32,000 nt of DNA from Halorhodospira halophila SL1 (lineage in GTDB: Bacteria > Pseudomonadota > Gammaproteobacteria > Nitrococcales > Halorhodospiraceae), in NCBI RefSeq assembly GCF_000015585.1, contig NC_008789.1:1380001-1412000 (forward strand). Direction: 5' to 3'. Within the stretch, counting starts at the first letter, position 1. Every line of letters starts with the position of its first letter. Positions 6,829-32,000 of the stretch are shown one piece after another. The position numbers were made by a program, and so were the translations under genes. Below the pieces are notes generated by a model. It saw only the letters and a program-made list of their open reading frames with translations. It had not been told where the DNA came from and did no database searches.

Positions 6829-6853
6829 GCGGAGGACTGTTTTGTCCTTTGTT

Positions 6854-11688: not shown

Positions 11689-11704
11689 CTGAATAAAGTT
11701 ACAG
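11689..11704 (+). promoter_or_regulatory. Candidate LexA (SOS) box overlapping the umuDC promoter
   Basis: CTGAATAAAGTTACAG fits CTG-N10-CAG with an AT-rich spacer. It lies 28 bp upstream of the umuD ATG. A TTGACG -35-like hexamer is at 11670-11675, and TAAAGT (-10-like) lies inside the box. Confidence 0.6.
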
Positions 11705-11731
11705 CCCTGTGTCCGTGGAACCGCACCCGTC

Positions 11732-13431: not shown

Positions 13432-13525
13432 GTCGCGATGTGCCCAGTGGAGTGCCGCCCCACTACCCCTGCGAGCGTTTGCCGTGGTACGTGTCCCCTT
13501 ACGGGTTACTGCCAAGGAGGCGCTC

Positions 13526-14254: not shown

Positions 14255-14719
14255 GGCGGGGGTGAGCGTTAGTGCCCACGGATGGCGTTATGCACAGCAG
14301 CCCGCTAGGCACACGCCCAAAGGTGGGTGCCCTGGCTGGGCTCCTCCTGGTGCGCGAGAACGCATCCATCGCCCCGCTCCACCTATGGCGAACGGTGATG
14401 GCATGCTCAGCCGACACCCTCGGGTCGTTCTCGGCGAAAACAGCAGGGCCGCCCGGGGTTGACATTGCCGGTCGCGGTAGTCATTGACCGCTCGTTTCTG
14501 CACAAGCTCCCAGCAAACGCCTCGTAACCCACTGACGGATGGAAGGGTAACGATAGGTTGCTGATTTGCCGTTGCTTTAGCACTGGCTACTGGTTATCCA
14601 GTCGACCTCGAATGCCCTCATGGCAAGGCTTCGGTCGACGTTCTCCACACGGTTTTCCACAGGTTTTGTGGAAAGGGGATCTCAGTTCTACCGCCGCGGC
14701 ACGCTCCTCCCGCGCCCAC

Positions 14720-15961: not shown

Positions 15962-16144
15962 CACGCTCCTCACCGGTGTGCCGTCATCCGCTATAGCGGC
16001 GGGCATGCCCTTCTACACCACCCCCGCGACACCATCTGTCGTCGCATTCGGAGACCATCCTTCCCGAACTGCGGGCTTCCCCGGACCTCTTTCAATCCCG
16101 CATGATGTGCCGTAGAAATACCTCGATCGCACACGGACCGAGCG

Positions 16145-17146
16145 ATGACCGACAGCCTTCTGCGTCAGTGGACGATGCTCCAGCACATCCCCCGCCAGCC
16201 GCGGGGGATCAGCGCCGGCCAACTCCACGACCGGTTGCGCTGCGAGGGCTACGCGGTCTCGCTGCGCACCGTCCAGCGCGATCTCAACACCCTCTCCAGT
16301 GAATTCGCGCTGGTCTGCGAAAGCGTGGGCAACGAGCAGCACTGGTCGTGGCTCGCCGATGCGCCGGTGCTCGACGTCCCCGGTCTCTCGCCGGCGGCGG
16401 CGCTGGCCTTCCGGCTTGCCGAGCTCCACCTCGGCGCTCTGCTGGCTCCGGAGGCGCTACGGGCCCTGCGGCCGCACTTCGAGGCGGCCAAGCGGGTCCT
16501 CAACCAAGGCGGCTCGCAGCTCTCCCACTGGCCGAATCGTGTCCGCGTCCTGACCCGTTCCCAGCCCCTACTCGCCCCGGACGTCGACCCGGGGGTCTAC
16601 GACCGGATCTGCCAGGGACTCCTTGAGGGCCGGCAGCTCTACGTCCACTACCGCCCGCGTAGCCGGGGCAGCGAGCTGCGAAGCTACCGGATGCATCCGC
16701 TCGGGCTGGTTATGCGCGATCCGGTCAGCTACGTGGTGGCGACGCTGCGCGACTACACCGATGTCCGGCAGATGGCGCTGCACCGCTTCGAGGCGGTGGA
16801 GCTGCTCGACGACCCGATTGCCCCGCCGGCGGGCTTCGACCTGGATGCCTACATCCACGAGCAGCGGGCCTTCGATCTGCCCGACACCAACGAACCCGTC
16901 GCCCTGCACCTGCGGATCAGCGCCGGCGTGGCCGAGCATCTTACGGAGGCGCCGCTGTCCGAGGATCAACGGATCGAAGCCTGCGACGACGGCTGGTGGA
17001 GCCTGCGCGCCACGGTGCCCCTGACCGCACAACTGCGCTGGTGGCTGCTCGGCTTCGGGCAGGCGGTGCAGGTCCTCGAGCCGCAAGCGTTGCGAGACGA
17101 GCTCGCCGCCGAACTTCGGGCTGCGGCCGACTTGTACGACGAATAA
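16145..17146 (+). CDS. WYL-domain transcriptional regulator (HTH-WYL-WCX architecture, BrxR/CapW/PafBC-like)
   Basis: N-terminal wHTH (LLRQWTMLQHIPRQPRGISAGQLHDRLRCEGYAVSLRTVQRDLNTL). Central WYL-type segment (LYVHYRPRSRGSELRSYRMHPLGLVMRDPVSYVVATLRDYTDVRQMALHRFEAVELL). Confidence 0.85.
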   Translation: MTDSLLRQWTMLQHIPRQPRGISAGQLHDRLRCEGYAVSLRTVQRDLNTLSSEFALVCESVGNEQHWSWLADAPVLDVPGLSPAAALAFRLAELHLGALLAPEALRALRPHFEAAKRVLNQGGSQLSHWPNRVRVLTRSQPLLAPDVDPGVYDRICQGLLEGRQLYVHYRPRSRGSELRSYRMHPLGLVMRDPVSYVVATLRDYTDVRQMALHRFEAVELLDDPIAPPAGFDLDAYIHEQRAFDLPDTNEPVALHLRISAGVAEHLTEAPLSEDQRIEACDDGWWSLRATVPLTAQLRWWLLGFGQAVQVLEPQALRDELAAELRAAADLYDE

Positions 17147-17293
17147 AGAACCATAACCGGCCGCCAACCGCGACATGAGATGTCGCAGCCGTTTGTTGTC
17201 ATTACATCATCCCGGGCAGGATCCGATCGCGGATCCGGGCATGGAAGCCACCCGGGGCCCTTTCCAAAGAAACCGGGGGAGCGCTCTGCGATC

Positions 17294-18520
17294 ATGCCCC
17301 GCCTGTCCAAATCCCGCTTCATCGCCGGCTGGCAGTGCCCGCTTCGGCTCTGGTATGCGGTCCACGAGCCCTGGCGAGCCACGCCGCCTGATCCCCAGTT
17401 GCAGGCGATCTTCGACCAGGGCCACCGACTCGGGCAATTGGCTCAGCAGCGCTATCCATCCGGGGTGCTCGTCGAAGCGGATTACCGGCACACGCGTCAG
17501 GCCCTCGAGCAAACACAGGCGCTGATGGCCGACCCGGGGCGTACCGGCGATCTTTGAAGCCGCTCTGGAGCACGAACAGGTCCTGACCCGAGTGGACGCG
17601 CTCGTTCGAAACGGTGACGGGTGGGACCTGGTCGAGGTCAAGGGCGCCACGCGTGCCAAGGAGGTTTTCCAGCTCGACGTGGCGATCCAGTATTGGATCC
17701 TCACCGGTGCCGGCATCCCGGTACGCGATGCCGGGCTGCTGTTGATCGACCGTGACTACGTCTACCCGGGCGGCGCGCACGACCCCCAGGAGTTCTTTCG
17801 GTTCGAGCCGCTGACCAGAACCTGCGAGCAGTGGCGTGAGTGGATCGAGACGCAGGTCGTCTCCTTCCAGGAGGTTGCCGCCCGTACAACACCACCCCAG
17901 ATCGAAATCGGGCAGCAGTGCTTTAGCCCTTACCCCTGCCCGTTCTACAACCACTGCTCTGCTGACAGGGAGTGGCCCGAGCACCCGATCGAGGAGCTAC
18001 CGTATCTGGCCGGCGAGCGTTACCAGGGCCTCCTCGAGCAGGGTGTCACAACCATCGACGCCATCCCCGACGATTACCCGCTTACCGGCGCTCAGAAGCG
18101 GGTCCGAGACGCCGTTGCCAAGGGGCACCCCTGGACCGATCCCGACCTGGGTGAAGCCGTTCAGGGCGTGGATTAGCCTCTCTTCTTCCTGGATTTCGAG
18201 ACCGCGCAGCCGGCCTTACCCCGTTACCCCGGAACCTCGCCGTTCCAGGCCTTGCCGTTCCAGTTTTCCTGCCATATCCAACGAGCCCCCGGGGTCGCCC
18301 CGGAGCACACGGACTTTCTGGCTACCGCCGATACCGATCCCCGGCGCCCGCTTGCCGAGGCACTGCTCAACGCACTCGGTGACCGCGGATCGATCGTCGT
18401 TTACTCCAGCTTTGAGCGGCGGGTCCTCGGCGAACTCGCCGATGCGCTACCGGATCTCGCTGAGCCCTTAGCCGCCCTTCAGGACCGGCTGTGGGATCTG
18501 CTACGGGTCGTGCGAGACTA
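17294..18520 (+). pseudogene. DUF2779-family protein (Cas4/RecB-like Fe-S PD-(D/E)xK nuclease plus DEDD-like exonuclease domain), disrupted
   Basis: MPRLSKSRFIAGWQCPLRLWY, DLVEVKGAT, CFSPYPCPFYNHC (the Cas4-type Cys cluster together with the N-terminal Cys) and FFLDFET...PFQFSCH. There are three lesions. One is a +1 frameshift in a G run near 17535. One is an in-frame TAG at 18174-18176. The third is a 3' truncation by the IS30 end at 18521. Confidence 0.8.
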
Positions 18521-19314
18521 GCTGATCTCAAGAATCAAGCGCAACAGTCTTCGAGAAGGCCTGAAGCTCTTCAGTCATGGCCTCCTCGGGCGTTCTGAAG
18601 TCCAGTGCCTTGCGTGGCCGCTGGTTGAGAAGCCGCGCAATATCATTGAGTTGGGTCTGGCTCGGCTCGCTGAGATCGGCGCCCTTGGGCAGGTACTGGC
18701 GCAGCAGGCCGTTGGTGTTCTCGTTGCTGCCACGCTGCCAGGGCGCGTGCGCATCGGCGAACCAGATCGACAGATTCAACCGCCGGGCAAGCCGCTCATG
18801 GCAGGCCATCTCGCTGCCCCGGTCGTAGTCAGACTCTGACGCAGGATTGCCGGCAGGCGCCTCATCTGCCGATGGAAGCCCTCCAGGGCGGCCTCGGCGG
18901 TACCGTCGTGCATCTTGCTCAGTACGACGTAGCGGGTCTTGCGCTCAACCAGCGTGCCGACCGAGGAGCGGTTGTAGGCGCCCTTGATCAGGTCGCCCTC
19001 CCAGTGGCCGGGCATCAGCCGCTGCTCGATCTCTTCAGGCCGATAGGCGATGCGCAGGTGCTCCGGGGCGATCGAGCCGCCTCGCGCGGCCGTGCGCCGC
19101 CGTTGCCCGCGCTGCGGTTTCTGGCGGCGAAGCGCCCGGATCAGCTCCTGCTTGAGCGAGCCCTTGGGATGGGCATAGATCGCCGCGTAGATGGTCTCGT
19201 GGCTGACGCGAGCCTCAGGATCCTCGGGGTTCATACGCGCCAGTCTGCCGGCGATCTGCTCGGGAGACCACTGCCAGTAGCACAGCCGGTCCAGGACGTA
19301 GCGATACAGCCATC
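18521..19314 (-). mobile_element. IS30-family element, second copy, degraded (1-bp deletion and 5' truncation of the transposase)
   Basis: Near-identical to 9266-10060, with a few SNPs. One G is missing near 18826 (GTCGTAGTCAG versus GTCGTAGGTCAG), which splits the ORF into 18528-18809 and 18776-19345. It is cut at 19314 by the IS3 left end. Confidence 0.88.
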
Positions 19315-19370
19315 TGGTCTTGCCCACCAACCGTGGACACCTCAATAGCTACCATTCGACGAGGTGATCC

Positions 19371-19685
19371 ATGACGAGGCAAGCTACTCAGATGAGCAAG
19401 ACCAAGGCGAAGTCCAAGCGCACACGCTACACCCAGGCCTATCGAGACGAGGCGCTGGCGTTGGCCGAGCGCGTCGGCGTCAGCGAGGCGGCCCAGCAAC
19501 TCGGGATCCAGCCGGCGCAGATCTACCAGTGGCGCACCAAGGCCCGGACCGAAGCGGACCGCTCGCAGCGAGAGCGGGAGTTGGCCGAGGAGAATGCCCG
19601 GCTCAAGCGTCAGCTCTCGGAAGCGAATGAGGAGCTGTCGATCACAAAAAAGGCCGCGGCGTACTTCGCGAAAAACCAGAAGTGA
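19371..19685 (+). CDS. IS3-family transposase OrfA (HTH)
   Basis: 104 aa with an HTH (VSEAAQQLGIQPAQIYQWR) and a leucine-zipper-like tail. Contains the A6G frameshift site. Confidence 0.88.
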   Translation: MTRQATQMSKTKAKSKRTRYTQAYRDEALALAERVGVSEAAQQLGIQPAQIYQWRTKARTEADRSQRERELAEENARLKRQLSEANEELSITKKAAAYFAKNQK

Positions 19686-20548
19686 AGTACGCGTTCATCG
19701 ATCAGCAGCGTCACGAGCACCGGGTCCAGGCGATGTGCCGCGTCCTTGGCGTTGCTCGCAGCGGCTTCTACGCATGGTGTCGGAACAAAGCTGTCCGCGC
19801 CGCACGGGAAGAGCGCCAGCAGGCCTTTGATGGGCAGGTGCAAGAGGCCTTCGAAGACTCCAGGCAACGCTCTGGAGCGCCTCGACTGACGCGAGAGCTG
19901 GACGGGCAAGGCGTGTCGGCCAATCGCAAGACCGTGGCCCGGAGCATGCGCCGTCAGGGCCTCCGGGCACGCACGTCACGCCGGTTTAAGGTGACGACGA
20001 ACTCGGCTCACAGCCTGCCGGTCGCGCCAAACCACTTGGCCCAGCACTTTGAAGCGGAGCAGCGGAACCAGAAATGGACTGGCGACATCACGTATTTGGC
20101 GACCGGCGAAAGATGGCTCTATCTCGCGGTCGTCCTGGATCTTTGTGGCCGCAAAGTGATCGGTTGGGCCATGCGCGAGCAGATGAGCGCTGAACTGGCC
20201 TGTGAGGCGCTTCAGATGGCCCTGGAACGGCGAGGCTACCCCACGGGGGTCATCGTCCATACGGATCGAGGCAGCCAGTACTGCTCCCGTGCGTACCGCA
20301 GGCTCATCAGCGACTACGGGCTGATCAGCAGCATGAGCGCGAAGGGCAGCTGCTACGACAATGCCTGCAACGAGAGCTTTTTCCGTTCCCTGAAGGTCGA
20401 GGCCCTGCATGGCGAGAAATTCCCCACGCGGGCCTCGATGCGTGAGGCCGTCTTCGAATACATTGAGGGCTACTACAATCGCCGGCGTCTTCATAGCACG
20501 CTCGGGTACCTATCCCCGGACGACTACGAGGCCCGGCTTAATAGCTAA
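19682..20548 (+). CDS. IS3-family transposase OrfB (DDE/rve integrase core); normally expressed as an OrfAB fusion by -1 frameshifting
   Basis: WTGDITYL...HTDRGSQYCS...CYDNACNESFF...YYNRRRLHSTLGYLSP are the canonical IS3 DDE motifs. Confidence 0.9.
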   Translation: MKYAFIDQQRHEHRVQAMCRVLGVARSGFYAWCRNKAVRAAREERQQAFDGQVQEAFEDSRQRSGAPRLTRELDGQGVSANRKTVARSMRRQGLRARTSRRFKVTTNSAHSLPVAPNHLAQHFEAEQRNQKWTGDITYLATGERWLYLAVVLDLCGRKVIGWAMREQMSAELACEALQMALERRGYPTGVIVHTDRGSQYCSRAYRRLISDYGLISSMSAKGSCYDNACNESFFRSLKVEALHGEKFPTRASMREAVFEYIEGYYNRRRLHSTLGYLSPDDYEARLNS

Positions 20549-20578
20549 CACCGTGTCCACGTTCGCTGGGTAAGACCA

Positions 20579-21316
20579 CCCGGCAGAGCGCTGCCAGCTC
20601 GCCGAAAGCACCTGCTCAACGGCGGGTTTGAGCCCCGGTGAGCGTCACAGATGACCAGCTCGACCCCGCACCCGTCAAACCCCGACCGATGACCTCGCGG
20701 AGGAACTGCTTCGAGAACCCCTCCGTCTCGTTCGACCCCAACGACAGGCCCAGTGCCTCCCAGCGCCCTACGGTGTTGACGCCGACCGCGATCAGGCAGG
20801 CCTTAGAGATCACCCGGCCGTGCTCGCGGACCTTGATGTAGGTGGCATCGAGCAAAAGAAATGGCCAGCGCCCCTCGCTCGGTCGGCTCAGGAACGCCCC
20901 CACCCCCTCGTCGATGAACTGGCACAGCCGCGAGACCTGCGAATTTGAGATCCCCTCCATGCAGACGGCCTTGACGAGCTCGTCGACGGAGCGGGTCGAC
21001 ACCCCCTGGATATAGGCCTCCTGAACAACCCCGACGAGCGCCTGCTACATTGCCGCCGCGGCTCCAGGAACGAGCGCAGATAGTTGGCGTGGCGCAGACG
21101 CGGCACCTTTAGCTCCATGGAGCCGACCCGTCTGTCTTAGCGCCGGCTACGGTAGCCGTTGCGATAGTCCGTGCGCTAATGGCGCTGATCCCCCCACATC
21201 GAGTCCGCCTTGGCCTCCATGAGCTGCTGGACGATTTCATGGACCAGCATGCGCAGAAAGTCGACGTCGCCACCCTTCTCAGCCATCTCCAGCAGTGCGA
21301 ACCTGTTATCAGCCAT
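20579..21316 (-). pseudogene. IS256-family transposase, degraded and 3'-truncated by IS3 copy 1
   Basis: My minus-strand translation gives MADNRFALLEMAEKGGDVDFLRMLVHEIVQQLMEAKADSMWGDQRH*, then YRNGYRSRR*DRRVGSMELKVPRLRHANYLRSFLEPRR. After a frameshift it reads STRSVDELVKAVCMEGISNSQVSRLCQFIDE...LLLDATYIKVREHGRVIS. These are typical IS256 motifs interrupted by stops and frameshifts. Confidence 0.8.
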
Positions 21317-21709
21317 CGCGGACCTCCATTCGATTGGGTTTCTTCGTTTACTGGCCCGAATCCTAACGGGGTCGGCGGTGGCCCTTCACCTCCCTGAAGC
21401 CCACCCCACTACAGCTGCCCTGCTGTAGCTTTTACGCATTCCTGGGGACTCTACTGCAAGACCAGATTTCCGTCGCTAACTAATCGCCGAAGTGTCTACC
21501 TTCGAGTTATCTTCGTGACTAGGGAGTTCCGCGTATACTGCGCCCATTCTGCGACAACGTGCCCGACTAGCAGAATATGCCTCCCCTTCACGCACGACCT
21601 ATACTTGCCATCGATAGTCTGCGCTAAGGTGCCGGCAGGATAGGCTCGGATAACTTTTCACACCCGTAGACCTCCCAAATAACCATCAGCCCTCTAGCTG
21701 GGTGATCGC

Positions 21710-23038
21710 ATGAGGTTCACTATGGTTGATAACAAAACCCCTCAGATTAGTGTACAGAAAATCACGCTAAGGATCTTTATGGGGGCGTGCTTTATCCTGA
21801 TGTGTATAGCCTGTAACTCATCGAGCGACAACGATGAAACGGAGCACGAGAGTGATACGCCGGAGGTAACACATGAATTAACTCTCGAACCCAGTGAATC
21901 CAGCCTTAAAGCTGAGTGGCTTGACTCTGAGGATGTGACCTACAATCTGATTTACGGCCAGGACGAGGACATTTTAACCGATCCAGCTAACTACGCCACC
22001 TACGATGGGAGCATGGATCAAGACGTCAGCTCTCCACATGAAATCAAGGGACTGGAAAAGGAATCGACTTACCATGTTGTTCTTGAAGTTGACGACGAGC
22101 GTGGCACCCGTTATCCAGCGAAAGAATCAACTACGCTGAATTCGGAAAAAATTTTAAGCTCGAGCGATGTGTTATGGATATTTGAAAAGCATGATGGAGT
22201 CGTACGTAGCCTCGCAGCGTATGATAGCACCGTTTACAGCAGCGGCAACGATGAGACGGTCCGCGCCATAGACGCAAAAAGTGGGGACGAGATATGGGTT
22301 TTTGAGGAGCATTTTGACTTTATCTACAGCGTTGAAAACTATGAGGGCACAGTCTACAGCGCTGCCCGAGGCGGTGCATCAAGCATAAAAGATGGTTATG
22401 ATAGCACCGTCCGCGCAATTGATTCTGGAACAGGTGAAGAGAAATGGGTGTTTGACGGTAACAGATCTTTTTATGACGTTGCCGCAGCCGACAACTCCGT
22501 ATATGCTGCAAAATCAAGCGGGAGCGTCCTTCAGATAGACGCTGAAAAAGGATCAAGGAAACAGGTTATCGGACAACATGATCGTCAAGCCAGAGGCGTT
22601 GCGGTAGCGGGCGGGACTGTATTTAGCGCCGGTCATGATACAACTATACGCGCTTTCGACGTAGAACAAGAAGAAGAGAAATGGGTCTACGAGGGGCCAG
22701 AAAGCCCCCACAAAAACTTCTTGAGTGTTGCAGCAACCAAGGAAGCAGTTTACGCGGGCAGCGACACCTCTATAAGGGCGCTTGACGCTGATACAGGCGA
22801 GAAGCAGTGGGCTTATGAGGACATACAGTCCGGTGGGTTTTACACCGTTAAAGAACTTGGCGACGTGGTATACGGCGGAAGCCTTGACGGAAAAGTTCGG
22901 GCAATCGATTCGAAAACGGGTGAAAAGAAGTGGGTCTTTGCAGAACATGAAGACCACGTGCGGGCTGTCGTGCCAACCGAACATGCTATATATAGTGGCG
23001 ATAGCGGCGGGACAATCTTAGCTATTGATCCCCCTTGA
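21710..23038 (+). CDS. Lipoprotein with FN3-like segment and PQQ-like/BamB-like beta-propeller repeats
   Basis: Lipobox-like FILMCIAC followed by an acidic linker. The motif (D/G)xT(V/I)RA(I/L)Dxx(T/S)GE(E/K)KWV(F/Y) recurs six to seven times about 40 aa apart. AT-richer than the surroundings. Exact start uncertain. Confidence 0.78.
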   Translation: MRFTMVDNKTPQISVQKITLRIFMGACFILMCIACNSSSDNDETEHESDTPEVTHELTLEPSESSLKAEWLDSEDVTYNLIYGQDEDILTDPANYATYDGSMDQDVSSPHEIKGLEKESTYHVVLEVDDERGTRYPAKESTTLNSEKILSSSDVLWIFEKHDGVVRSLAAYDSTVYSSGNDETVRAIDAKSGDEIWVFEEHFDFIYSVENYEGTVYSAARGGASSIKDGYDSTVRAIDSGTGEEKWVFDGNRSFYDVAAADNSVYAAKSSGSVLQIDAEKGSRKQVIGQHDRQARGVAVAGGTVFSAGHDTTIRAFDVEQEEEKWVYEGPESPHKNFLSVAATKEAVYAGSDTSIRALDADTGEKQWAYEDIQSGGFYTVKELGDVVYGGSLDGKVRAIDSKTGEKKWVFAEHEDHVRAVVPTEHAIYSGDSGGTILAIDPP

Positions 23039-23189
23039 AAAACTACTAGGCTGCTGGAAAAGTCGGTTTTGTCATGTCATAAAGGTTGTCGTTGATCGCG
23101 TAATGGTCCAGCGCACCGGTTTGGCCTGGAAACTGGTCTTGCCCACCAACCGTGGACACCTCAATAGCTACCATTCGACGAGGTGATCC

Positions 23190-23504
23190 ATGACGAGGCA
23201 AGCTATTCAGATGAGCAAGACCAAGACGAAATCCAAGCGCACACGCTACAGCCCGGCCTATCGAGACGAGGCGCTGGCGTTGGCCGAGCGCGTCGGCGTC
23301 AGCGAGGCGGCCCAGCAGCTGGGGCTCCAACCGCCGCAGATCTACCAGTGGCGCACCAAGGCCCGGAACGAAGCGGACCGCTCGCAGCGAGAGCGGGAGT
23401 TGGCCGAGGAGAATGCCCGGCTCAAGCGTCAGCTCTCGGAAGCGAATGAGGAGCTGTCGATCACAAAAAAGGCCGCGGCGTACTTCGCGAAAAACCAGAA
23501 GTGA
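23190..23504 (+). CDS. IS3-family transposase OrfA (copy 2)
   Basis: 104 aa, differing in a few residues from copy 1. The A6G slippery site is at 23465-23471. Confidence 0.85.
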   Translation: MTRQAIQMSKTKTKSKRTRYSPAYRDEALALAERVGVSEAAQQLGLQPPQIYQWRTKARNEADRSQRERELAEENARLKRQLSEANEELSITKKAAAYFAKNQK

Positions 23505-24369
23505 AGTACGCGTTCATCGATCAGCAGCGTCACGAGCACCGGATCCAGGCGATGTGCCGCGTCCTTGGCGTCGCTCGCAGCGGCTTCTACGCATGGTGCC
23601 GGAACAAGGCGGCCCGCGCCGCACGGGAAGAACGCCAGCAGGCCTTTGATGGGCAGGTGCAAGAGGCCTTCGAAGACTCCAGGCAACGCTCTGGAGCGCC
23701 TCGACTGACGCGAGAGCTGGACGGGCAAGGCGTGTCGGCCAATCGCAAAACCGTGGCCCGGAGCATGCGCCGTCAGGGCCTCCGGGCACGCACGTCACGC
23801 CGGTTTAAGGTGACGACGAACTCGGCTCACAGCCTGCCGGTCGCGCCAAACCACTTGGCCCAGCACTTTGAAGCCGAGCAGCGGAACCAGAAATGGACTG
23901 GCGACATCACGTATTTGGCGACCGGCGAAGGATGGCTCTATCTCGCGGTCGTCCTGGATCTTTGTGGCCGCAAAGTGATCGGTTGGGCCATATGCGCGAG
24001 CAGATGAGCGCTGAACTGGCCTGTGAGGCGCTTCAGATGGCCCTGGAACGGCGAGGCTACCCTACGGGTGTCATCGTCCATACGGATCGTGGCAGCCAGT
24101 ACTGCTCCCGTGCGTACCGCAGGCTCATCAGCGACTACGGGCTGATCAGCAGCATGAGCGCGAAGGGCAGCTGCTACGACAATGCCTGCAACGAGAGCTT
24201 TTTCCGTTCCCTGAAGGTCGAGGCCCTGCATGGCGAGAAATTCCCCACGCGGGCCTCGATGCGTGAGGCCGTCTTCGAATACATTGAGGGCTACTACAAT
24301 CGCCGGCGTCTTCATAGCACGCTCGGGTACCTATCCCCGGACGACTACGAGGCCCGGCTTAATAGCTAA
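23501..24369 (+). pseudogene. IS3-family transposase OrfB (copy 2), frameshifted
   Basis: Split into track ORFs 23501-24007 and 23893-24369 by the 2-bp insertion near 23990. Confidence 0.85.
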
Positions 24370-24399
24370 CACCGTGTCCACGTTCGCTGGGTAAGACCA

Positions 24400-24553
24400 T
24401 CTTGGCTTACTTCGAACACCCGATCACCAGCGGGACAATCGAGGGGCTCAACAACCGGATCAAGACGGTCAAGCGCCAGGCCTACGGCTTCCGGGACATG
24501 GAGTATTTCAAGCTTCTGGTCCGTCACCTGAACGACCCGATCGTGCAGGCATG
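24400..24553 (+). pseudogene. ISL3-family transposase, C-terminal fragment
   Basis: My translation LAYFEHPITSGTIEGLNNRIKTVKRQAYGFRDMEYFKLLVRHLNDPIVQA* matches the conserved ISL3 C-terminus (ITNGxxEGxNNKIKxxKRxAYGFR). It starts directly at the IS3 copy 2 right end. Confidence 0.75.
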
Positions 24554-24713
24554 AACGGGCGCTCAGAGAGCACTTTCGGCGGCGCCGCCGAGGGACACAT
24601 CACAATGATGGAATCCGTGAAGACCCGAGGTTGTCGGTACACAGGTTCATTTCATTGGATGCTGCCCCGCCGACGGCCAGGCAGCGTCCGGAGAACCTAT
24701 AAGATGAATTAGG

Positions 24714-25700
24714 CTATGAGCCCTCCCACCTCAACTCATCCCATTCCAGATGAATGCTTCCGCCACCCTCTATATCAGTAACGGTGGCTCCGTCGTTTCT
24801 GTACTTGATTCGTAAATCGTACCCGTCGGGGTGTTTTACGCGGATTTCCCCGTCACAAATCCATCCGTGCGCTTCATCCTCAAAGGCACTCCAGTTCCAT
24901 TGGTCAAACTTCAAGTCGACTTCAGTGGAGACCTCGGCGTATCCTTCGTCGTACCCGTAGACTTTCTCACCGTCATCTTCTAAATACCAGCCAAAGCCAC
25001 CCGATATACGCATCCGATAGGGATTAATTGTTTCCTGCTCCCAGGTGAAGTCGGAATCCCATCGGATTTCGAATAGCTCATCATCCTCGTGCCAGCGGCC
25101 GGTGAGTCCTGAATCAACCGTAATGACTCTGGGTACGCTAGTCGTGTCGCGGTACGATCTTGAGTAGTCACCTTCTACTTCGAGCTCTCCAGGGAGCTGG
25201 TTTCCGCCGCCATCAAAGAATCTATCCGTGTATTCGACTTCAAAATACCCCTCACTATCGCTCGGACCTTCGTCAACAGGACCTATGCTGGAAGCTCGAA
25301 TTGTGCCGTCCCGTTCGACATATTCATCACCAAGCTCAGATTGCCAGCTGTGGAACCGGGACTGCTCGTACGTCAGGGTTTGGTCCGCGAGCGTTAATGT
25401 CCCGTTCTCGGGGCAGTCGGGCGGCTCGTCTTCTTCTTCGCTAGCGCAACCGTAGTGCTCGAGGTATTCTCCAGTGCGCTTCCAGAGATCTAGAAGCACC
25501 AGGTCTTCGGTCACGAATTGAGCGACTTCTTTCATTGTCGCATCGGAAGCTGCCTGAGGCGGTGATTCGTCAGTTTCCCCATTCGAATCGTCATCATCGT
25601 CGTCGCTGCTGAGACAACCACCAAGCAACAGACTACTCAGGAGAATGGTTGAGCTGTAGATGGTCCAGCGAGAGATGGCTTTTTTATTGGTGTGGGGCAT
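24714..25700 (-). CDS. Lipoprotein of unknown function
   Basis: Signal peptide plus lipobox (LLSSLLLGGC) followed by a poly-Asp linker (SSDDDDDDSNGETDES). The body is acidic and Trp/Tyr-rich. AT-richer than the flanks. No family recognised. Confidence 0.72.
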   Translation of the reverse strand: MPHTNKKAISRWTIYSSTILLSSLLLGGCLSSDDDDDDSNGETDESPPQAASDATMKEVAQFVTEDLVLLDLWKRTGEYLEHYGCASEEEDEPPDCPENGTLTLADQTLTYEQSRFHSWQSELGDEYVERDGTIRASSIGPVDEGPSDSEGYFEVEYTDRFFDGGGNQLPGELEVEGDYSRSYRDTTSVPRVITVDSGLTGRWHEDDELFEIRWDSDFTWEQETINPYRMRISGGFGWYLEDDGEKVYGYDEGYAEVSTEVDLKFDQWNWSAFEDEAHGWICDGEIRVKHPDGYDLRIKYRNDGATVTDIEGGGSIHLEWDELRWEGS

Positions 25701-25789
25701 CCGTATCGTCCTTTTTCTTTTTTTTGGTCGACGTTACACGCAAAGGGCTCTAAGATCATAAGGGATTGCATCATGACGTACAACACGGA

Positions 25790-26130
25790 AGGTTAGCTGT
25801 TGCGATCTGGCGGATCCTCAACCACTACCTACGTGGAAGCGGCTCGCCATTGCTCAGCAGGACCTCAGCAGCGTCCGTGCTGTCGGCATCGCCGAGACGG
25901 CCTGGCGGCGCGGGCAGAACTACATCACGGTCTTGTAAAATCTCGATGCCCGCAGCCTGCTCTTCGCCTTTCAGGGGCGGAACCAGTCGATTATCGCGGA
26001 TTTTGGGTCCCTTCGCGGATCGTGTGGCTGTCAGGAGGTTGCCGCGGGGTAGTCGGTTAAGCATCTGTGCCTATATGTTGTGCCTCGCCGTCCCCGCCCA
26101 AGCGAGGAGCTGTCATGGCCACCGAGCATG
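25790..26130 (+). pseudogene. ISL3-family transposase, internal fragment with frameshifts (boundaries approximate)
   Basis: One frame reads DLSSVRAVGIAETAWRRGQNYITVL* (compare ISL3 GIDExxxRKGHxYxTVxxD). Neighbouring frames carry WRILNHY and LDARSLLFAFQGRNQS-like pieces. Confidence 0.5.
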
Positions 26131-26232
26131 CCCTGTTCACCGGCGCGCTGGTATGCGTCCGGTGAACCCCGTGTATCCACCGTAACGTCCACCGGTTAGC
26201 TTGGCCCCGTGTTTTGATCCGCGACCACGGAG

Positions 26233-26841
26233 GTGGCGATGGCCGGCGGGACTCAAGAGCGCAAGCGCGCCTTCTGCGCGCAAGAGGGCGTGGCCGAGAG
26301 CACCTTCACCGCCTGGCGCCGACACCTGCAGGCCGCTGCGGTGGCACCGAGCGCGGCACCGAAACCGGCCGAGGCGACGGAGCCGACGCCTTCGGCGCCA
26401 GAGCCCGCTGGTGGCCTGTTCGCTGAGCTTTCGTTACCGGGCGCCTCGCCATCGGACGACCCCCTCCGGGGTAAGCAGGACGCTGCGCCCTGGGGGTCGA
26501 GTTGGACCTCGGCGCCGGGGTCTTCTGCGGATCCGGCGGGCCCCGGGGTGCTGACGCCGCCGCGGCGCCTGTGGCTGTGTACCCGGGCGACGGACATGCG
26601 GTGCTCGTTCGATGGTCTTGCCGCGCTGGTGCGTCGCCACCTCGGGCGGGATCCGCTCAGTGGGCAGGGCTTCATCTTCGTCAATCGCCGGCGCACCCTG
26701 ATGAAGCTGCTCTACTTCGACGGCGACGGCTACTGCGTGTGGAGCAAACGCCTCGAGCAGGGTCAGTTCGGCGTGGGGGGCGCTCAGGTACAGACCGTGG
26801 AGGCGCTGACCTGGACGCAGTTCGCCGCATTGCTTGAGTAG
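26233..26841 (+). CDS. IS66-family accessory proteins TnpA-TnpB (fused in one frame); orphan, no TnpC present
   Basis: The N-terminus (RKRAFCAQEGVAESTFTAWRRHL) is HTH-like, as in IS66 Orf1. The C-terminal half LWLCTRATDMRCSFDGLAALVRRHLGRDPLSGQGFIFVNRRRTLMKLLYFDGDGYCVWSKRLEQGQF is the IS66 Orf2/TnpB signature. Confidence 0.75.
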   Translation: MAMAGGTQERKRAFCAQEGVAESTFTAWRRHLQAAAVAPSAAPKPAEATEPTPSAPEPAGGLFAELSLPGASPSDDPLRGKQDAAPWGSSWTSAPGSSADPAGPGVLTPPRRLWLCTRATDMRCSFDGLAALVRRHLGRDPLSGQGFIFVNRRRTLMKLLYFDGDGYCVWSKRLEQGQFGVGGAQVQTVEALTWTQFAALLE

Positions 26842-26952
26842 GACTGAATCTGACTATACCTTGAGTCTCGCCCAGCGCCGCGCCGGTTATGAGGCTGGGC
26901 GCAAGGGTTTGGAAGGATGCAGCAGGCCTTAAGCGGATAATAACCGTCGGGC

Positions 26953-27315
26953 GTGACAGCGCTCGGTTTACCGGGCATGAAGGTCTTTCACTCAGCACAT
27001 AAACGGGGCGTCGATACCCGCCGCCTGCGACGAGAGATGCGGCGGCGTTCGGCGGTGGAGGCGGTGATCGGCCACATGAAGATCGACGGGCGCATGGACC
27101 GGTGCCGGCTCAAGGGCCGCCTCGGCGATGCCATGAACGCGGTGCTCGCCGCGGCCGGGCACAACATCCGACTGCTACTCCGGGCGATGGCCGCCTTTTT
27201 GCGGCTTGCTCTGCGGGCGCTCCTGCAGCGGATGTCCATGGAGGGTCACCCCGATGTCCACTCCGCGCCGACGATGTCGGCCGCATGCCCGAAACGGAAC
27301 AAGAAACACGAGTAA
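26953..27315 (+). pseudogene. IS5-family (DDE_Tnp_1) transposase, C-terminal fragment
   Basis: RRRSAVEAVIGHMKIDGRMDRCRLKGRLGDAMNAVLAAAGHNIRLLLR matches the conserved IS5-group C-terminus. The N-terminal two thirds are absent. Confidence 0.72.
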
Positions 27316-27333
27316 CCCGTTATTCAGAACCGA

Positions 27334-27615
27334 CTATCCAGACCTCCCTTGCATCGAGTCGGTGAACGAGGAATTCCGAGGACGCCCTTTGCGCGGCGCG
27401 CCCTTCTTCAATAACTTGGCCGGCTCAGCCCCTGGGTACTCCACCCTACTCTCAAGCCAGGCGTCCACGTCGTCCAGGCGCCAGCGGTAATGGCGGCCTA
27501 GCTTGATGTAGGGAGGCAAATCCTGACCTCGACAGAGCCTGGCACGAATCGCACCAGGCGCTAATCCGAGGTACTGTGCAAGATCGTTGGTGGTGAGAAG
27601 CGGTGGTCGGTGCAT
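27334..27615 (-). CDS. AlpA/excisionase-family (HTH_17) DNA-binding protein
   Basis: LLTTNDLAQYLGLAPGAIRARLCRGQDLPPYIKLGRHYRWRLDDVDAWLE is a typical MerR-like excisionase/AlpA fold. The gene sits next to attR, at the opposite end of the island from the integrase. Confidence 0.8.
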   Translation of the reverse strand: MHRPPLLTTNDLAQYLGLAPGAIRARLCRGQDLPPYIKLGRHYRWRLDDVDAWLESRVEYPGAEPAKLLKKGAPRKGRPRNSSFTDSMQGRSG

Positions 27616-27710
27616 GCGCCTTGTCCTGTTTGGGGTTCACTACCCTGTAAGGGATCAGCGACCACACCGACCGGCTTGGGACCCAGACCGCTCCCCAGAA
27701 GCCCAGATCT

Positions 27711-27735
27711 ATGCAGTACTCATGCAGTACTGCAT
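27711..27735. promoter_or_regulatory. Candidate operator: tandem ATGCAGTACT repeat forming a perfect 14-bp palindrome
   Basis: ATGCAGTACTCATGCAGTACTGCAT. The last 14 nt (ATGCAGTACTGCAT) are self-complementary. It lies about 100 bp upstream of the alpA-like start in an AT-rich spacer. Confidence 0.4.
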
Positions 27736-27848
27736 AGGCAAAAACTTGTCATTCGCCGTAACGTGGAGTAATCTCCAGTAACTGTAAACGACTGATTGGT
27801 CGCGCCTTTATAGCGTAAGCGCTTGTTCCTCGGGACAGTCTGATGGCT

Positions 27849-27894
27849 TTCACACGGCAGGGGTCGCTGGTTCGATCCCAGCGCCGCCCACCAA
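27849..27894 (+). repeat. attR: 46-bp direct repeat copy of the tRNA-Val 3' end
   Basis: Identical to 8562-8607. The upstream tRNA half is absent, so this is not a second tRNA gene. Confidence 0.88.
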
Positions 27895-28084
27895 CTTCCC
27901 TGCGGCTTAAGCCTCTTCCACCAGGCTCTGGGTCGCTTAAGTCTCACAGCGCCCCCCTCCCCCGCCGTGACGCTCCCAAGTGCGTCATTGGATGATACCC
28001 TCGGAGTCTTGCAAACACGTCATCCTGGCGACAGGTGTCGCGTTGCTGGGACGCTTCTTCGCCTGACGACGAACGACCAGGATC

Positions 28085-28447
28085 ATGTCCGACCAATACC
28101 CTGAGTCCTTCCGAGAGTTCCAGCAGCAGCTACACAGTTTCGTCGCCGAGCGCGACTGGTCACAGTTCCATACCCCGAAGAACCTGGCTATGGCCCTGGC
28201 CGGCGAGGTCGGGGAACTCGTCGAGCATTTCCAATGGCTGAGCAACGAGGCCTCTGACAGCCTGCCGGTGGGAAAGCTAGCAGAGGTACGTCGTGAACTG
28301 GCGGACATCCAGATCTATACGCTGTTGCTGGCCAATCGGCTGGAGTTGGATCTTGCCGCGGCCGTCCGCGATAAGATTGCTGAAAACGAAGCCAAGTATC
28401 CGCCGGACCGCGCCTTCGGGCGGTCTGACAAGTACACCGATCTTTAA
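28085..28447 (+). CDS. MazG-type nucleoside triphosphate pyrophosphohydrolase (small all-alpha, DCTPP1-like)
   Basis: FVAERDWSQFHTPKNLAMALAGEVGELVEHFQW and RRELADIQIYTLLLANRLELDL carry the ExxE/ExxD metal-binding helices of the MazG-like family. 120 aa. Confidence 0.85.
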   Translation: MSDQYPESFREFQQQLHSFVAERDWSQFHTPKNLAMALAGEVGELVEHFQWLSNEASDSLPVGKLAEVRRELADIQIYTLLLANRLELDLAAAVRDKIAENEAKYPPDRAFGRSDKYTDL

Positions 28448-28455
28448 AGACCCTG

Positions 28456-30906
28456 ATGCTTGTCTATAGCGGCGACAAGAGCACCTTCCTCACGGATGTA
28501 GCGGATAACCGGATCTCGGATCGCATCCTCGCAGCCATGACCCGACGCAGTATGGGCGGGGTCAGTGAGAGCGAACGCCGATCCTGGGAGCAGTCCCTGC
28601 TCTACATGAAGAACGTGGTCGAGGACCCGAACATCCCGGATGACGCCGGCATCGCTGTGGAGTACCGCATCCCGCAGACATCCAAGCGGGTAGACGTCAT
28701 CATATCTGGCCTCGATGACGAACAACGCGAGTCCTGCGTCATCATTGAGCTCAAGCAGTGGCAGCACGCCGAGGCTACCGGCAAGGACGCCATCGTTCGC
28801 ACACTCCTAGGCGGTGGGATCCGGGAAACCACTCACCCCTCCTATCAGGCGTGGAGTTACAGCACGCTACTGGAGGATTTCAACGAAGCTGTGCAGAACG
28901 GCGGGATTCGGCTGACCCCGTGCGCCTATCTGCACAACTGCACCGACGGCAGCGGCCTCCAGGAACCACTCTACGACCGCTATCTGCAGTGCGCCCCGCT
29001 CTTCCTCCGGCACGACACACAAAAGCTGCGCGCGTTCATTCGGAGGTATGTCCGGTACGGTGACCATCGCCGCGTCCTTTATCGCATCGACCAAGGGCGT
29101 ATCCGCCCCTCCAAAGACTTGGCCAGTTCCCTCGCCCGTCTGATCCGCGGCAACCGAGACTTCCTGATGATCGACGACCAGAAGGTTGCCTACGAGGCTG
29201 CCCTGGAAGTCGGGACTATCGCTCAGGAATTCGGCAAGCAGGTACTGATCGTCGAAGGAGGTCCGGGCACGGGAAAGTCCGTAGTCGCCATCAACTTGCT
29301 GGTTGAACTGACCAAGCGCCACCAGACTGTCCACTACGTCACTCCGAACCGGGCGCCGCGGCAGGTCTACGAAGGACGGTTGACGGGCACTCTGACCAAA
29401 ACCCGGTTCAGCAACCTCTTCAAAGGGTCCGCCGCGTATGACAACGCGGAGCGTGACGAAATGGATGGGCTCCTCGTTGACGAAGCCCACCGCCTTCAGG
29501 AGCGCTCGCGGTGGCAGCGCGCTGGAACCAACCAGATCCGTGACATCATCCGCGCGGCCCGGACCAGCGTCTTTTTCGTCGATGAGGCGCAGCAGGTCAC
29601 CTGGAACGACACCGGCTCCATCCAGGAAATCGAGCGCTGGGCACGCGCTGAGGGGGCCACCATCCATCGCGCCGCACTGCAGTCACAGTTCCGCTGCAGC
29701 GGTTCCGACGGCTACCTGGCGTGGCTCGATCAAGCTCTCCAGATCCGCGACACGGCTCAGAAGGACCTGCACGGCATCCGTTACCACCTAGAAGCCGTTG
29801 ACTCCCCCCGAACCCTCTACCAGCGCATTGTGGAACTAGACGGCAACGGTTCCAGGGCTCGTTTGGTGGCCGGTTACTGCTGGGATTGGATCAGCAAGAA
29901 AGACCCCTGCGCGTGGGATATCACGTTCCCGGAAGAGAATCTCTTCATGCGGTGGAATCTTTACGAGGACGAGGGACGCTACCTGGAGAAGACGCACTCG
30001 ATCGATCAAGTCGGATGCATCCATACGGTACAAGGTCTGGAGATGGACTACGTGGGGGTGATCATTGGCCCCGACCTGATCGTGCGCAACGGCCACGTCG
30101 TCACCCAGCCCTCCAAACGGGCCCGCACGGACCGATCCCTTCACGGCTACAAGACTGCTCGCAAGGAGGCCCCGGAAGAGTGCGACGCCCGGGCGGACGC
30201 GATTATCAAGAACACCTATCGAACCTTGATGAGCCGCGGCCTCAAGGGGTGCCTGATCCACTGCACGGATCCGGAGACACAGGCCTACTTCCGGCAGGAG
30301 ATCGAGGCCGCTTTCTCCCAGCCTTCGGACAATACGGAGGCTTCGACGTTGCAGCCGGCGCCGGTCATTCCCCTGGATGAACAGTCATCGACCGAAGCGG
30401 AGGATGAACCGCGCACTATCCCCGCCGAAGCAGTCACGCCAGCGGATAACGCTGTGCCGTTTATCGAACTGGAGGCCGCTGCCGGAGAGTTTCAGGCGGG
30501 ATTCGCTGAGGCGGAGCGCCTTGAAGAGACGGAGACTTGGATTGCTTTGCCGGAACTCTACCGCGCCCGCCGCGGGTTGTTCGTTGCACGCGTCAAAGGA
30601 GAGTCCATGAATCGGCGCATCCCGAATGGCGCCTGGTGCCTCTTCGAGGCCAACCCCGGTGGATCGCGGCACGGCCGGGTCGTGCTCGCGTACCACCGGG
30701 ATATCCAGGACCCGGACAACAATTCTGCGCTGACTGTAAAACGGTACTACAGCGAGAAGATCACCTCGGCCGACGGCCAATGGCAGCACTCACGGATTAC
30801 CCTGGCCTGCGACACCCTGACCCCAGGCTATGAGGATATCGTGCTTGAGGAAGAGCAGGCGCGGGATCTTCGGATACTGGGAGAGTTCAAGGGCACCGTT
30901 GCCTGA
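28456..30906 (+). CDS. DUF2075-family (PD-(D/E)xK nuclease-like N-terminus plus P-loop SF1-like ATPase, Schlafen-helicase/Nhi-like) protein fused to a C-terminal LexA/UmuD-type S24 peptidase domain
   Basis: N-terminus KRVDVIISG...CVIIELKQW (D...ExK). Walker A VEGGPGTGKSVVAINL. Walker B LLVDEAHRL. C-terminal helicase-core motifs IHTVQGLEMDYVGVIIG and RTLMSRGLKGCLIH. An acidic linker follows, then VPFIELEAAAGEF (Ala676-Gly677), VKGESM (Ser717) and LTVKRYY (Lys762). It starts 8 nt after the MazG stop. Confidence 0.85.
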   Translation: MLVYSGDKSTFLTDVADNRISDRILAAMTRRSMGGVSESERRSWEQSLLYMKNVVEDPNIPDDAGIAVEYRIPQTSKRVDVIISGLDDEQRESCVIIELKQWQHAEATGKDAIVRTLLGGGIRETTHPSYQAWSYSTLLEDFNEAVQNGGIRLTPCAYLHNCTDGSGLQEPLYDRYLQCAPLFLRHDTQKLRAFIRRYVRYGDHRRVLYRIDQGRIRPSKDLASSLARLIRGNRDFLMIDDQKVAYEAALEVGTIAQEFGKQVLIVEGGPGTGKSVVAINLLVELTKRHQTVHYVTPNRAPRQVYEGRLTGTLTKTRFSNLFKGSAAYDNAERDEMDGLLVDEAHRLQERSRWQRAGTNQIRDIIRAARTSVFFVDEAQQVTWNDTGSIQEIERWARAEGATIHRAALQSQFRCSGSDGYLAWLDQALQIRDTAQKDLHGIRYHLEAVDSPRTLYQRIVELDGNGSRARLVAGYCWDWISKKDPCAWDITFPEENLFMRWNLYEDEGRYLEKTHSIDQVGCIHTVQGLEMDYVGVIIGPDLIVRNGHVVTQPSKRARTDRSLHGYKTARKEAPEECDARADAIIKNTYRTLMSRGLKGCLIHCTDPETQAYFRQEIEAAFSQPSDNTEASTLQPAPVIPLDEQSSTEAEDEPRTIPAEAVTPADNAVPFIELEAAAGEFQAGFAEAERLEETETWIALPELYRARRGLFVARVKGESMNRRIPNGAWCLFEANPGGSRHGRVVLAYHRDIQDPDNNSALTVKRYYSEKITSADGQWQHSRITLACDTLTPGYEDIVLEEEQARDLRILGEFKGTVA

Positions 30907-31056
30907 CTCTAGGGGTATCGACACGGCCGTCGAAATCGGCGTGGTTCACCACCAAGAGCGCGCCCGGCCCCAAATCGCGGGCCAGCAGGGCGCACTAGTC
31001 GACCCCGGTTGACAGGCGCAAATCGGAGCGCCGAGCCAGTGGCTTTGCCCCCTCAC

Positions 31057-31428
31057 TCAGAGCGCGTAGGCCTTCAGCGTATCGAGGTCAATCACGGCCA
31101 GGGTCTCGGCATGCTTAGCGTGCAGATCCACCATCGGAGCCACTCCCGCGCGGTAGGCCTCCATCCAGCGGCCGGCGCAACGACACCATCGGTCCCCGGG
31201 CTGAAGGCCGGGAAACCCCATGCCCGGATTGGGGGCCGTCAGGTCGTTGCCCTGCTCCCGGGTAAAGCTCAGAAACGCCTCGTCCAGCCGGGCGCAGACC
31301 GTGTGGATTCCAACGTCCTCGTGACCAGTATTGCAGCAGCCGTCCCGGTAAAAGCCGGTCAAAGGCTGAGTGCTACAAGGCGCGAGGGGCTGGCCGAGCA
31401 CATTGAGGGACTCGAAAGGCTGGCTCAT
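31057..31428 (-). CDS. DUF2237-family protein
   Basis: LNVLGQPLAPCSTQPLTGFYRDGCCNTGHEDVGIHTVCA...GDRWCRCAGRW matches the conserved Cys-rich DUF2237 pattern. I chose start MSQPF (31428), which is preceded by GGAG. Confidence 0.78.
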   Translation of the reverse strand: MSQPFESLNVLGQPLAPCSTQPLTGFYRDGCCNTGHEDVGIHTVCARLDEAFLSFTREQGNDLTAPNPGMGFPGLQPGDRWCRCAGRWMEAYRAGVAPMVDLHAKHAETLAVIDLDTLKAYAL

Positions 31429-31456
31429 TGCGATCTCCAACTCCGAAGATGGGGGA

Positions 31457-31628
31457 TCATGCGGCAGGGGTGCTCATCCACCGGCGCCCGAAGTAGTCAA
31501 GCACCCCGTCGATGCGCACCCCGACATTGTCGCGGGTGATGACCTCCTGTTTGGGGAAGTCACCTCGGGGATGGCAGCCGCATCATTCATGCACCGCCGG
31601 AGCAGCATCAGTGCCAGCGGTACCAACA
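31457..31628 (-). pseudogene. SPFH/band-7 (stomatin-like) gene fragment (low confidence)
   Basis: One minus frame reads FPKQEVITRDNVGVRIDGVLDYF, which resembles the conserved QEVITKDNVxVxVDGVxxY segment of SPFH proteins. It is bounded by stops, and a TM-like piece (VVLVPLALMLL) lies in another frame. Confidence 0.35.
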
Positions 31629-32000
31629 CCACCCCGGAGAACGCGGTCTGGGGTGTCGGCCAACGGCTCGCCGATCGCCTGGCTGAGCTCGGCATTCAGA
31701 CCACCGAGGATCTCGCCAGGTTACCCCCGCGGCGGATCCGTCAGCACTTCCCCGTGACCCTGGCGCGAACGGCGGAGGAGCTGCGGGGCTGCGCCTGCCA
31801 CGACCTTGAAAGCGAACCGGCGCCCCGGCAGCAGATCGTCTGCTCGCGTACTTTCGGCACGCCGGTTCGTGACAAGCCGGCGCTGCGCGAGGCCGTGGCG
31901 GATTACGCGGCGCGGGCTCAATCGGCGGACCTGGTGTTCTGGGTCCGTGAGGCGGGGGGAGCGTTAGTGCCCACAGATGGTGTTATGCACAACAGCCCTC
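31629..32000 (+). pseudogene. Second, internally deleted copy of the umuC 3' region and its downstream spacer
   Basis: 31629-31910 aligns with 12695-12976. 31911-31933 aligns with 13266-13288. 31934-32000 aligns with about 14238-14304. By eye there is roughly one mismatch per 10-15 nt. umuD and the first ~178 codons of umuC are missing. Confidence 0.85.

Follow-up and report, generated by a model that had tools for sequence, protein, structure and literature searches.

A probable pseudogene relic of a second umuC–HhH module beside a tRNA-Val island in Halorhodospira halophila SL1

Operons of the umuDC type are carried by various mobile elements, with mucAB, rumAB, impAB and samAB being found on plasmids and ICEs. 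Halorhodospira halophila SL1 likewise has an intact umuD–umuC operon on mobile DNA, in this case an integrase-type island at a tRNA-Val gene. In contrast to the known examples, a ComEA-family HhH gene and a WYL regulator come after the operon in SL1, and a second copy of the region, which is described here, is itself dead. Throughout this work, the window denotes the whole stretch of 32,000 nucleotides that was analysed. The segment under study occupies its right end (31629–32000) and had been described in an earlier note as a decayed duplicate of the umuC region. A literature search on islands in H. halophila yielded nothing relevant.

Pseudogene relics of duplicated or replaced genes are found in bacterial accessory regions, where they are shaped by deletional bias. 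The second copy in SL1 resembles them in its truncation at both ends, its internal deletions at short repeats, the replacement of invariant residues, the absence of a promoter and of the partner gene, and the presence of an ORF annotated as 'hypothetical protein' across the remains. It differs from them in that part of the relic is near-identical to the live copy, making the decay uneven. Gene conversion between repeated genes of one bacterial chromosome is known for tuf and for rRNA operons. As in those cases, the identity of the paralogues jumps, here from a divergence of 4–8% to about 0% over approximately 0.7 kb between direct repeats 17.7 kb apart, whereas one partner is a pseudogene. Finally, tandem arrays of integrase-mediated genomic islands occur at one tRNA gene. 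The SL1 locus has in common with such arrays the related cargo just past attR and the low GC content, but it shows no third att site, no second integrase and no shared backbone, and attR is separated from the copy by the DUF2237 gene, which has orthologues in relatives.

The setting is already familiar, namely a pseudogene relic in an IS-rich accessory region by a tRNA-integrated island with a umuDC operon. The locus is a fresh instance of known processes, comprising truncation, deletions at short repeats, IS-associated rearrangement and a conversion patch. As ordinary debris in a much-rearranged region it is of little importance beyond H. halophila SL1, and its value is that of a small worked example of decay rendered uneven by gene conversion.

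The tRNA-Val island and its umuDC–HhH module

The surroundings of the segment were annotated mainly by Pfam scans. The island is delimited by a 52-bp att direct repeat with a perfect 46-bp core and extends from 8559 to 27897. Upstream of it lie recB-like and recC genes, gltX, and the tRNA-Val gene (8532–8606). The features of the island, and one gene beyond it, to which the text refers are listed below with their positions in the window.

8559–8610, plus strand: attL, the 3' part of tRNA-Val, with the perfect block at 8562–8607
8885–9271, plus strand: N-terminal remnant of a P4-type integrase with an Arm-DNA-binding domain (Pfam E = 7e-28)
9272–10354: IS30-family element cutting the integrase, with inverted repeats at 9272–9291 and 10335–10354
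11732–12160, plus strand: intact umuD (ABM62052), without a counterpart in copy 2
12160–13431, plus strand: intact umuC (ABM62053) with IMS, IMS_C and DUF4113 domains, the source or paralogue of pieces 1 and 2 of copy 2
13526–14254, plus strand: ORF of 242 aa (ABM62054) with no Pfam family, nearly all of it absent from copy 2
14413–15094: probable gene-conversion tract of 682 bp, in which the copies are collapsed into one draft contig
14720–16006, minus strand: HhH copy 1, a ComEA-family DNA-binding protein (ABM62056), of which copy 2 retains the equivalent of 14720 to about 15631
Following HhH copy 1 in the island: WYL regulator (ABM62057)
27846–27897, plus strand: attR, with the perfect block at 27849–27894, the right end of the sole att-bounded island seen
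31057–31428, minus strand: DUF2237 gene (ABM62069), the sole part of 27898–32000 with a counterpart in a close relative (84% nucleotide identity)

The IS30-family element is followed by an outer-membrane beta-barrel gene, umuDC, the 242-aa ORF, the HhH gene and the WYL/WCX regulator. A fragmented DUF2779 gene and a partial IS30 come next, after which a PQQ-propeller gene of low GC lies between two IS3 copies. The right part of the island contains IS66 and IS1182-type fragments and an HTH_17 gene before attR is reached. Beyond attR, a MazG-like gene, a Schlafen-group-3 helicase–S24 fusion and the DUF2237 gene precede the second copy. As the integrase survives only as its Arm-DNA-binding N-terminus, cut by IS30, the island is probably immobile.

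The stop and start codons of umuD and umuC overlap in the intact operon. A LexA-box-like site, CTGAATAAAGTTACAG, is located at 11689–11704, about 30 bp upstream of umuD, and has one mismatch to CTGT-N8-ACAG; a perfect CTGT-N8-ACAG box was not found anywhere in the window. A TTGACG hexamer precedes the LexA-box-like site (11670–11704).

Structure and decay of the second copy

Comparison of the window with itself, using BLAST and a repeat finder, gave three co-linear, same-strand matches between 31629–32000 and the umuC region. The true homology begins about 9 bp before the first BLAST match, at CCACCCCGG, where position 31620 corresponds to 12686. The pieces of copy 2 and the ORF annotated across them are the following.

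31620–31917, plus strand: piece 1, an internal umuC fragment (about codons 177–275); 31629–31917 matches 12695–12983 over 289 bp at 93.4% identity with 19 mismatches and 0 gaps (self-BLAST, E = 6e-123)
31905–31936, plus strand: piece 2, a umuC fragment joined to piece 1 at ACGCGG and equivalent to 13250–13281 (32 bp, 2 mismatches)
31934–32000, plus strand: piece 3, of which the start is in the window; 31934–31998 matches 14238–14303 at 93.9% identity (self-BLAST, E = 2e-21), and the window ends inside this piece
31571–32000, plus strand: ORF ABM62070, a GenBank 'hypothetical protein' of 175 aa, continuing to window-equivalent 32098

Given the large deletions, BLAST and base-by-base walking were preferred to a MAFFT global alignment, and the junction sizes are those obtained by walking. 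Junction 1 is a deletion of 279 bp that preserves the reading frame. It spans a perfect ACGCGG common to both sides (31905–31910), with 11 of 13 bases agreeing over ACGCGGYGCGSGC. Junction 2 is a deletion of 959 bp, at which TG (possibly GTG) are the sole shared bases. This second deletion took umuC codons 375–423 together with the ORF at 13526–14254, save the last 17 bp of the latter. The match of 31629–31910 to umuC 12695–12976, reported in the earlier note, is borne out and runs on to 31917/12983. The note had also recognised both jumps: its ACGCGG microhomology at the first one holds, while the size of 289 bp and the target at 13266–13288 have to be replaced by the values above. The second jump, to about 14238–14304 with loss of the umuC 3' end and nearly all of ORF 13526–14254, was correctly placed, but its size had been given as 949 bp, so that both sizes in the note are off by 10 bp.

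Copy 2 has the same orientation as the intact copy, from which it lies 17.7–18.9 kb downstream, and it is not part of the att-bounded tRNA-Val island. An independent draft genome of the same strain, GCA_016583685.1, includes a contig identical to window 24273–32000 with the same junctions, so that copy 2 is no assembly artefact. Because the ORF of ABM62070 reads the umuC frame through pieces 1 and 2, it is regarded as a pseudogene ORF.

The DNA beyond the window was read from the draft contigs of GCA_016583685.1, placed in the GenBank protein order ABM62069–62088, and is not finished sequence. The draft is interrupted at every repeat. Contig 24 corresponds exactly to window 24273–32000 and adds 239 bp, contig 25 corresponds to 9917–14539, contig 26 to 14968–19297, and a 682-bp contig to 14413–15094, while a contig of 811 bp is 96.6% identical to 14968–15622 and then passes into different sequence. 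The ends of the copy-2 contigs overlap by exactly 127 bp, and a composite of copy 2 can therefore be assembled. It extends from 31620 to window-equivalent position ~33331, approximately 1.7 kb in total, of which about 1.3 kb is beyond the window. Piece 3 is equivalent, when complete, to 14238–~15631 and consists of intergenic DNA followed by the 3'-terminal 930 bp of the minus-strand HhH gene. This copy-2 HhH gene is ABM62071, encoding a ComEA-family protein of 309 aa with a start identical to that of the partial protein in the draft. Two GenBank annotations can hence be corrected, with ABM62070 being a umuC pseudogene ORF and ABM62071 a truncated HhH gene.

The homology of copy 2 ends at the equivalent of about 15631, approximately 25 bp short of the end of an IS3-family element. 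The N-terminus of an IS3-family orfA (MYTYEQRIKAVELYIQ...) is located on the draft contig beside ABM62071, and draft contig 9 begins with the C-terminus of an IS3-family orfB and the right end of the element. Comparison of the flanking bases, CAG versus GCC, revealed no target-site duplication around the element, and the GGDEF gene DNA beyond it is unrelated to the HhH gene. For these reasons, the IS end would mark an IS-associated deletion or rearrangement that truncated the HhH gene, rather than a simple insertion. The proteins ABM62073 (GGDEF), 62074 (SRAP), 62076, 62078, 62081, 62082 and 62088 descend in number along the end of contig 9 (L026), and the reverse complement of L026 is thus taken to be the DNA that follows the window past one IS (ABM62072). 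The sequence reconstructed beyond the window amounts to about 1.5 kb plus 18 kb, excluding the IS interior (one CDS, ABM62072).

The losses in copy 2 affect both genes. It is without umuD, the promoter, and the first 526–535 nt of umuC, which correspond to the catalytic N-terminal third. Pfam detected no IMS domain in copy 2, compared with 6e-39 for the intact umuC, and returned only weak sub-threshold matches to IMS_HHH_1 and IMS_C, the latter covering profile positions 1–31 of 109. DUF4113 is also absent from copy 2 according to Pfam, the deletions of 279 bp and 959 bp having removed the rest of the C-terminal domains. Upstream of copy 2, a partner umuD and an SOS-type promoter are absent, and the divergent DUF2237 gene is found there instead. 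The S24 domain of the SLFN-type helicase was considered as the lost umuD of copy 2 and rejected, as the match is weak, covers only 23 residues, and is not UmuD-like. In a family alignment, the copy-2 HhH gene lacks the most conserved N-terminal part of about 105 residues.

With the closest UmuC proteins as outgroups, six replacements in the umuC fragment could be polarised. Copy 2 carries the derived state in five of them, three of which (V182E, A204T and M374V) affect invariant UmuC residues. This distribution points to pseudogene decay of the umuC fragment. The same invariant-residue replacements, along with a synonymous divergence of 0.06–0.13 between the copies, confirm the earlier reading of a decayed copy of the umuC region that is not recent. 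In the duplicated intergenic region, Rfam identified no RNA family, and scanning for promoters and terminators turned up a single site, weak and terminator-like. As far as can be judged from its sequence, the relic is without a function of its own as a gene. Its only likely effect is structural, as a direct repeat of 0.7 kb.

The identity between the two copies changes abruptly along their length, as listed here in copy-1 coordinates.

umuC part: 93.4%
14238–14406: 91.7%, with a 1-bp deletion and a 5-bp insertion
14413–15094: 100% in the draft consensus
15095–15622: 95.8%

Within 14413–15094, the draft consensus shows 0 differences in 682 bp, a count based on a collapsed draft contig, as against 38 expected from the flanks, which are 4–8% divergent. 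At the protein level, the GenBank entries for the two copies disagree at 2 residues within this stretch, so at least 2 differences are present and the identity is near-perfect rather than perfect. The Poisson probability of four or fewer differences is 2.6e-12, and the sharp local drop in divergence is thus beyond chance. Near-identity over 682 bp between flanks of 4–8% divergence argues for gene conversion, and the stretch is probably a recent conversion patch between the two direct repeats. Near-identical direct repeats of about 0.7 kb could in turn delete or amplify the intervening 17.7 kb, half the island included.

Origin of the second copy

The segment at the right end of the window is rather probably the start of a dead relic of about 1.7 kb, derived from a second module of umuC, small ORF, intergenic region and HhH gene. 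As for how this module came to its present position, an older, separately evolved copy is weakly favoured, with about an even chance of being the correct explanation, and this estimate includes the case of a true tandem island discussed below. The older copy may have been a resident locus beside tRNA-Val, or else a related element that arrived earlier and has since lost its ends. It would have been made redundant by the working SOS-type umuDC of the island and would have decayed afterwards. The 279-bp and 959-bp deletions probably arose from slipped or illegitimate recombination at short repeats.

Three weak clues lean towards an older separate copy, namely the perfect att block, the larger number of derived changes in the intact HhH gene, and the pN/pS ratio. 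The differences between the copies are concentrated at third codon positions (22 of 41, P = 0.006). The pN/pS ratio of 0.38 is too low for both lineages to have evolved neutrally (P = 0.0015), but it is not significantly below the value of about 0.58 that would result if one copy were neutral and the other constrained (P = 0.11). Neither the codon-position test nor the pN/pS test distinguishes between local duplication and a separate, older copy. When the HhH part was polarised with two outgroups, about 10 derived changes fell on the intact copy and about 4 on the relic, these being small counts. The 46-bp att block is perfect, although the divergences predict 1.5–3.3 changes for an attR that dates back to the split of the copies, the probability of none being 0.04–0.22.

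The att block bears directly on the strongest alternative, an old local duplication of approximately 12686–31619 in the resident island region, after which the second copy was mostly deleted and the remainder left as a pseudogene. This course of events is possible but unlikely. It would have joined the DNA upstream of DUF2237 to umuC at about codon 177, with the distal part being lost through the IS3-family element. A single event would then account for the direct orientation, the co-linearity, and the left junction after the DUF2237 upstream region, and neither a lost att nor a lost integrase is needed. In all searches, the nearest relative of the umuC fragment was the other copy (about 90% aa identity versus 84% for the next best), and the same is true of the HhH part (94% versus 80%). 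Copies that are mutual nearest relatives, in direct orientation and 18 kb apart, are exactly the prediction of an old local duplication. The assignment of five of the six polarised umuC-fragment replacements to copy 2 also agrees with it, and pN/pS is compatible (P = 0.11), if toward the low side. However, duplication within a resident island implies that attR is at least as old as the split, and none of the expected substitutions is present in the 46-bp block. The excess of derived changes in the intact HhH copy over the pseudogene likewise speaks against it.

The older separate copy could, as a special case, belong to a second, older related island in tandem at tRNA-Val, reaching from attR through the MazG, SLFN–S24 and DUF2237 genes to the relic and beyond. 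This was the proposal of the earlier note, and it is quite improbable. Related cargo adjoining the same att is the outcome expected of tandem accretion, and the derived-change counts and pN/pS, as weak clues for an older separate copy, are shared by this reading. The GC content stays low (0.60–0.66) from attR until about 7 kb past the IS, with 0.60–0.62 between attR and the copy versus 0.65–0.73 for recBC and gltX. Synteny with Halorhodospira sp. 9621 is back only about 10.7 kb past the IS, some 70 bp upstream of the M-box riboswitch of mgtE. On account of the low GC and this late return of synteny, the stretch from attR onward is considered accessory and rearranged.

The hallmarks of a second island are missing, however. 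A third att copy was found neither in the copy-2 contigs nor in the 18 kb reconstructed after the IS (IS interior excluded), where the best match of 12–13 nt is at chance level. There is no integrase or remnant after attR, where a MazG-like gene follows 188 bp on, and no integrase domain among the called genes of the downstream contig, while the island retains such a remnant beside attL. The tblastx comparison of the attR-to-copy and attL-to-umuC intervals found nothing in common, and the latter interval contains a 1.08-kb IS30. The similar distances of about 3.7 kb from att to umuC, previously taken as a sign of a tandem island, are consequently a coincidence. No other island gene recurs downstream: apart from the umuC and HhH pieces, tblastx detected the end of the IS and, in an MBL-fold gene, a generic HhH motif, but nothing else. 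A relative carries an orthologue of the DUF2237 gene whose identity is core-like (84% nt), and the homology to the window is limited there to the gene, with neither flank matching. The downstream check suggested earlier, for a third att and for island homologues, thus came back with neither in 18 kb and with just the third HhH paralogue (79%).

With no third att and no integrase after attR, the segment is read as the pseudogenised relic of a second umuC–HhH module. The tandem island is only partly supported: such an old island might have lost its ends, but none of the features that would define it is present. The proposed placement of the MazG/DUF2075–S24 pair in a decayed island, rather than in core chromosome, fares similarly: the DNA around it does look accessory, at a GC of 0.60–0.62, but the features of an island are not there. 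The tRNA-Val region of SL1 is a mosaic reworked by insertion sequences.

A further, highly improbable course would be the capture of the umuDC–ORF–HhH–WYL cargo of the island by imprecise excision beside the tRNA-Val of a close relative, followed by its return beside the orthologous locus of SL1. It would explain the closeness of the copies in sequence (93–96%) and in position as well as the absent third att. If it were true, the relic would be a resident copy in the middle of its replacement by an incoming xenologue, while sequence continues to pass between the two through gene conversion. A dispersed repeat or mobile element at many loci, which the earlier note named as a case that would refute its reading, is barely credible: SL1 does have three HhH paralogues (ABM62056, 62071 and 62078), but all of them lie within about 35 kb and the third is just 79% identical and shares the HhH gene only, while umuC pieces occur only twice (a one-member UmuC 90% cluster and one fragment ORF) and the segment is flanked by neither terminal repeats nor target duplications.

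HhH paralogues and other features of the region

The three paralogues of this uncharacterised ComEA-family HhH protein of about 415 aa are encoded on the same strand within approximately 35 kb, at 14720–16006, at window-equivalent ~32420–33350, and at L026 10001–11224. The third paralogue, ABM62078, is 79% identical to the first at the nucleotide level over 14454–15978. In metagenome loci, homologues are often found beside a WYL regulator (L029, L031, L032, L035, L066), and some are located beside umuD/umuC remnants and BREX genes (L050/L051) or beside a MazG-like gene (L059/L060). PADLOC gave no hit for the HhH protein and only weak hits (PDC-S41, Nhi, AbiO) for the MazG/SLFN pair. This pair occupies 28085–30906 at a GC of 0.60–0.62 and consists of the MazG-like gene and an 816-aa Schlafen-group-3 (DUF2075) helicase with a C-terminal S24 peptidase. 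As a lead, the recurring neighbourhood of the HhH genes, with WYL, umuDC, MazG-like and defence genes, offers more promise than the relic.

A perfect palindrome, TTCCACA-N5-TGTGGAA, is present at 14655–14673, 46 bp past the stop codon of HhH copy 1, and about 0.08 matches would be expected by chance in the window. Since this position is inside the near-identical tract, the palindrome is also present in copy 2. It occurs again at L026 9350–9368, approximately 650 bp upstream of the third HhH paralogue.

Further remnants of insertion sequences were observed in the island. The IS3-family element truncating copy 2 is also represented by a solo right end of 69 bp at 10360–10428, located after IS30 and before the outer-membrane gene. 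This end is 100% identical to L026 reverse complement 59–127, and IS1182-type fragments come next (repeat 10418–10458/26919–26959). The DUF2779 gene at 17592–18521 is in two frames and is cut by the partial IS30 (18507–19314), which ends at an IS3 (19314); a full-length DUF2779 paralogue of 493 aa, ABM61210, is found elsewhere in the genome with at least 90% identity. The partial IS30 was considered as a segmental duplicate of the integrase/IS30 junction, and this was rejected, as only about 14 of 21 flanking bases are alike, a likeness that probably reflects the target preference of IS30. The IS3-family copies at 19314–20578 and 23133–24399 are 98% identical, the transposase of the second being split into two ORFs. 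Together they give 19314–24399 the appearance of a composite transposon, in which the IS3 pair surrounds a Mutator-transposase fragment and the PQQ beta-propeller gene at a GC of 0.50–0.55.

A search of the genome collection anchored on DUF2237 gave relatives with 53–71% identity and without useful synteny. In the relative with 84% nucleotide identity (L072 2985–3834), the gene is located between an MFS transporter gene and an MBL-fold/HhH gene, and is convergent with the latter. In SL1, the MBL-fold/HhH gene (L026 7613–8704) is about 14 kb from DUF2237, on its other side, and the orthologue of the upstream MFS transporter, ABM61158, is approximately 900 genes away. Both flanks of DUF2237 have therefore been rearranged. 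The M-box magnesium riboswitch upstream of mgtE is located at L026 7146–7327 on the minus strand (Rfam RF00380, 127.8 bits), and the Na/Pi-cotransporter block beside mgtE is inverted in Halorhodospira sp. 9621 relative to SL1.
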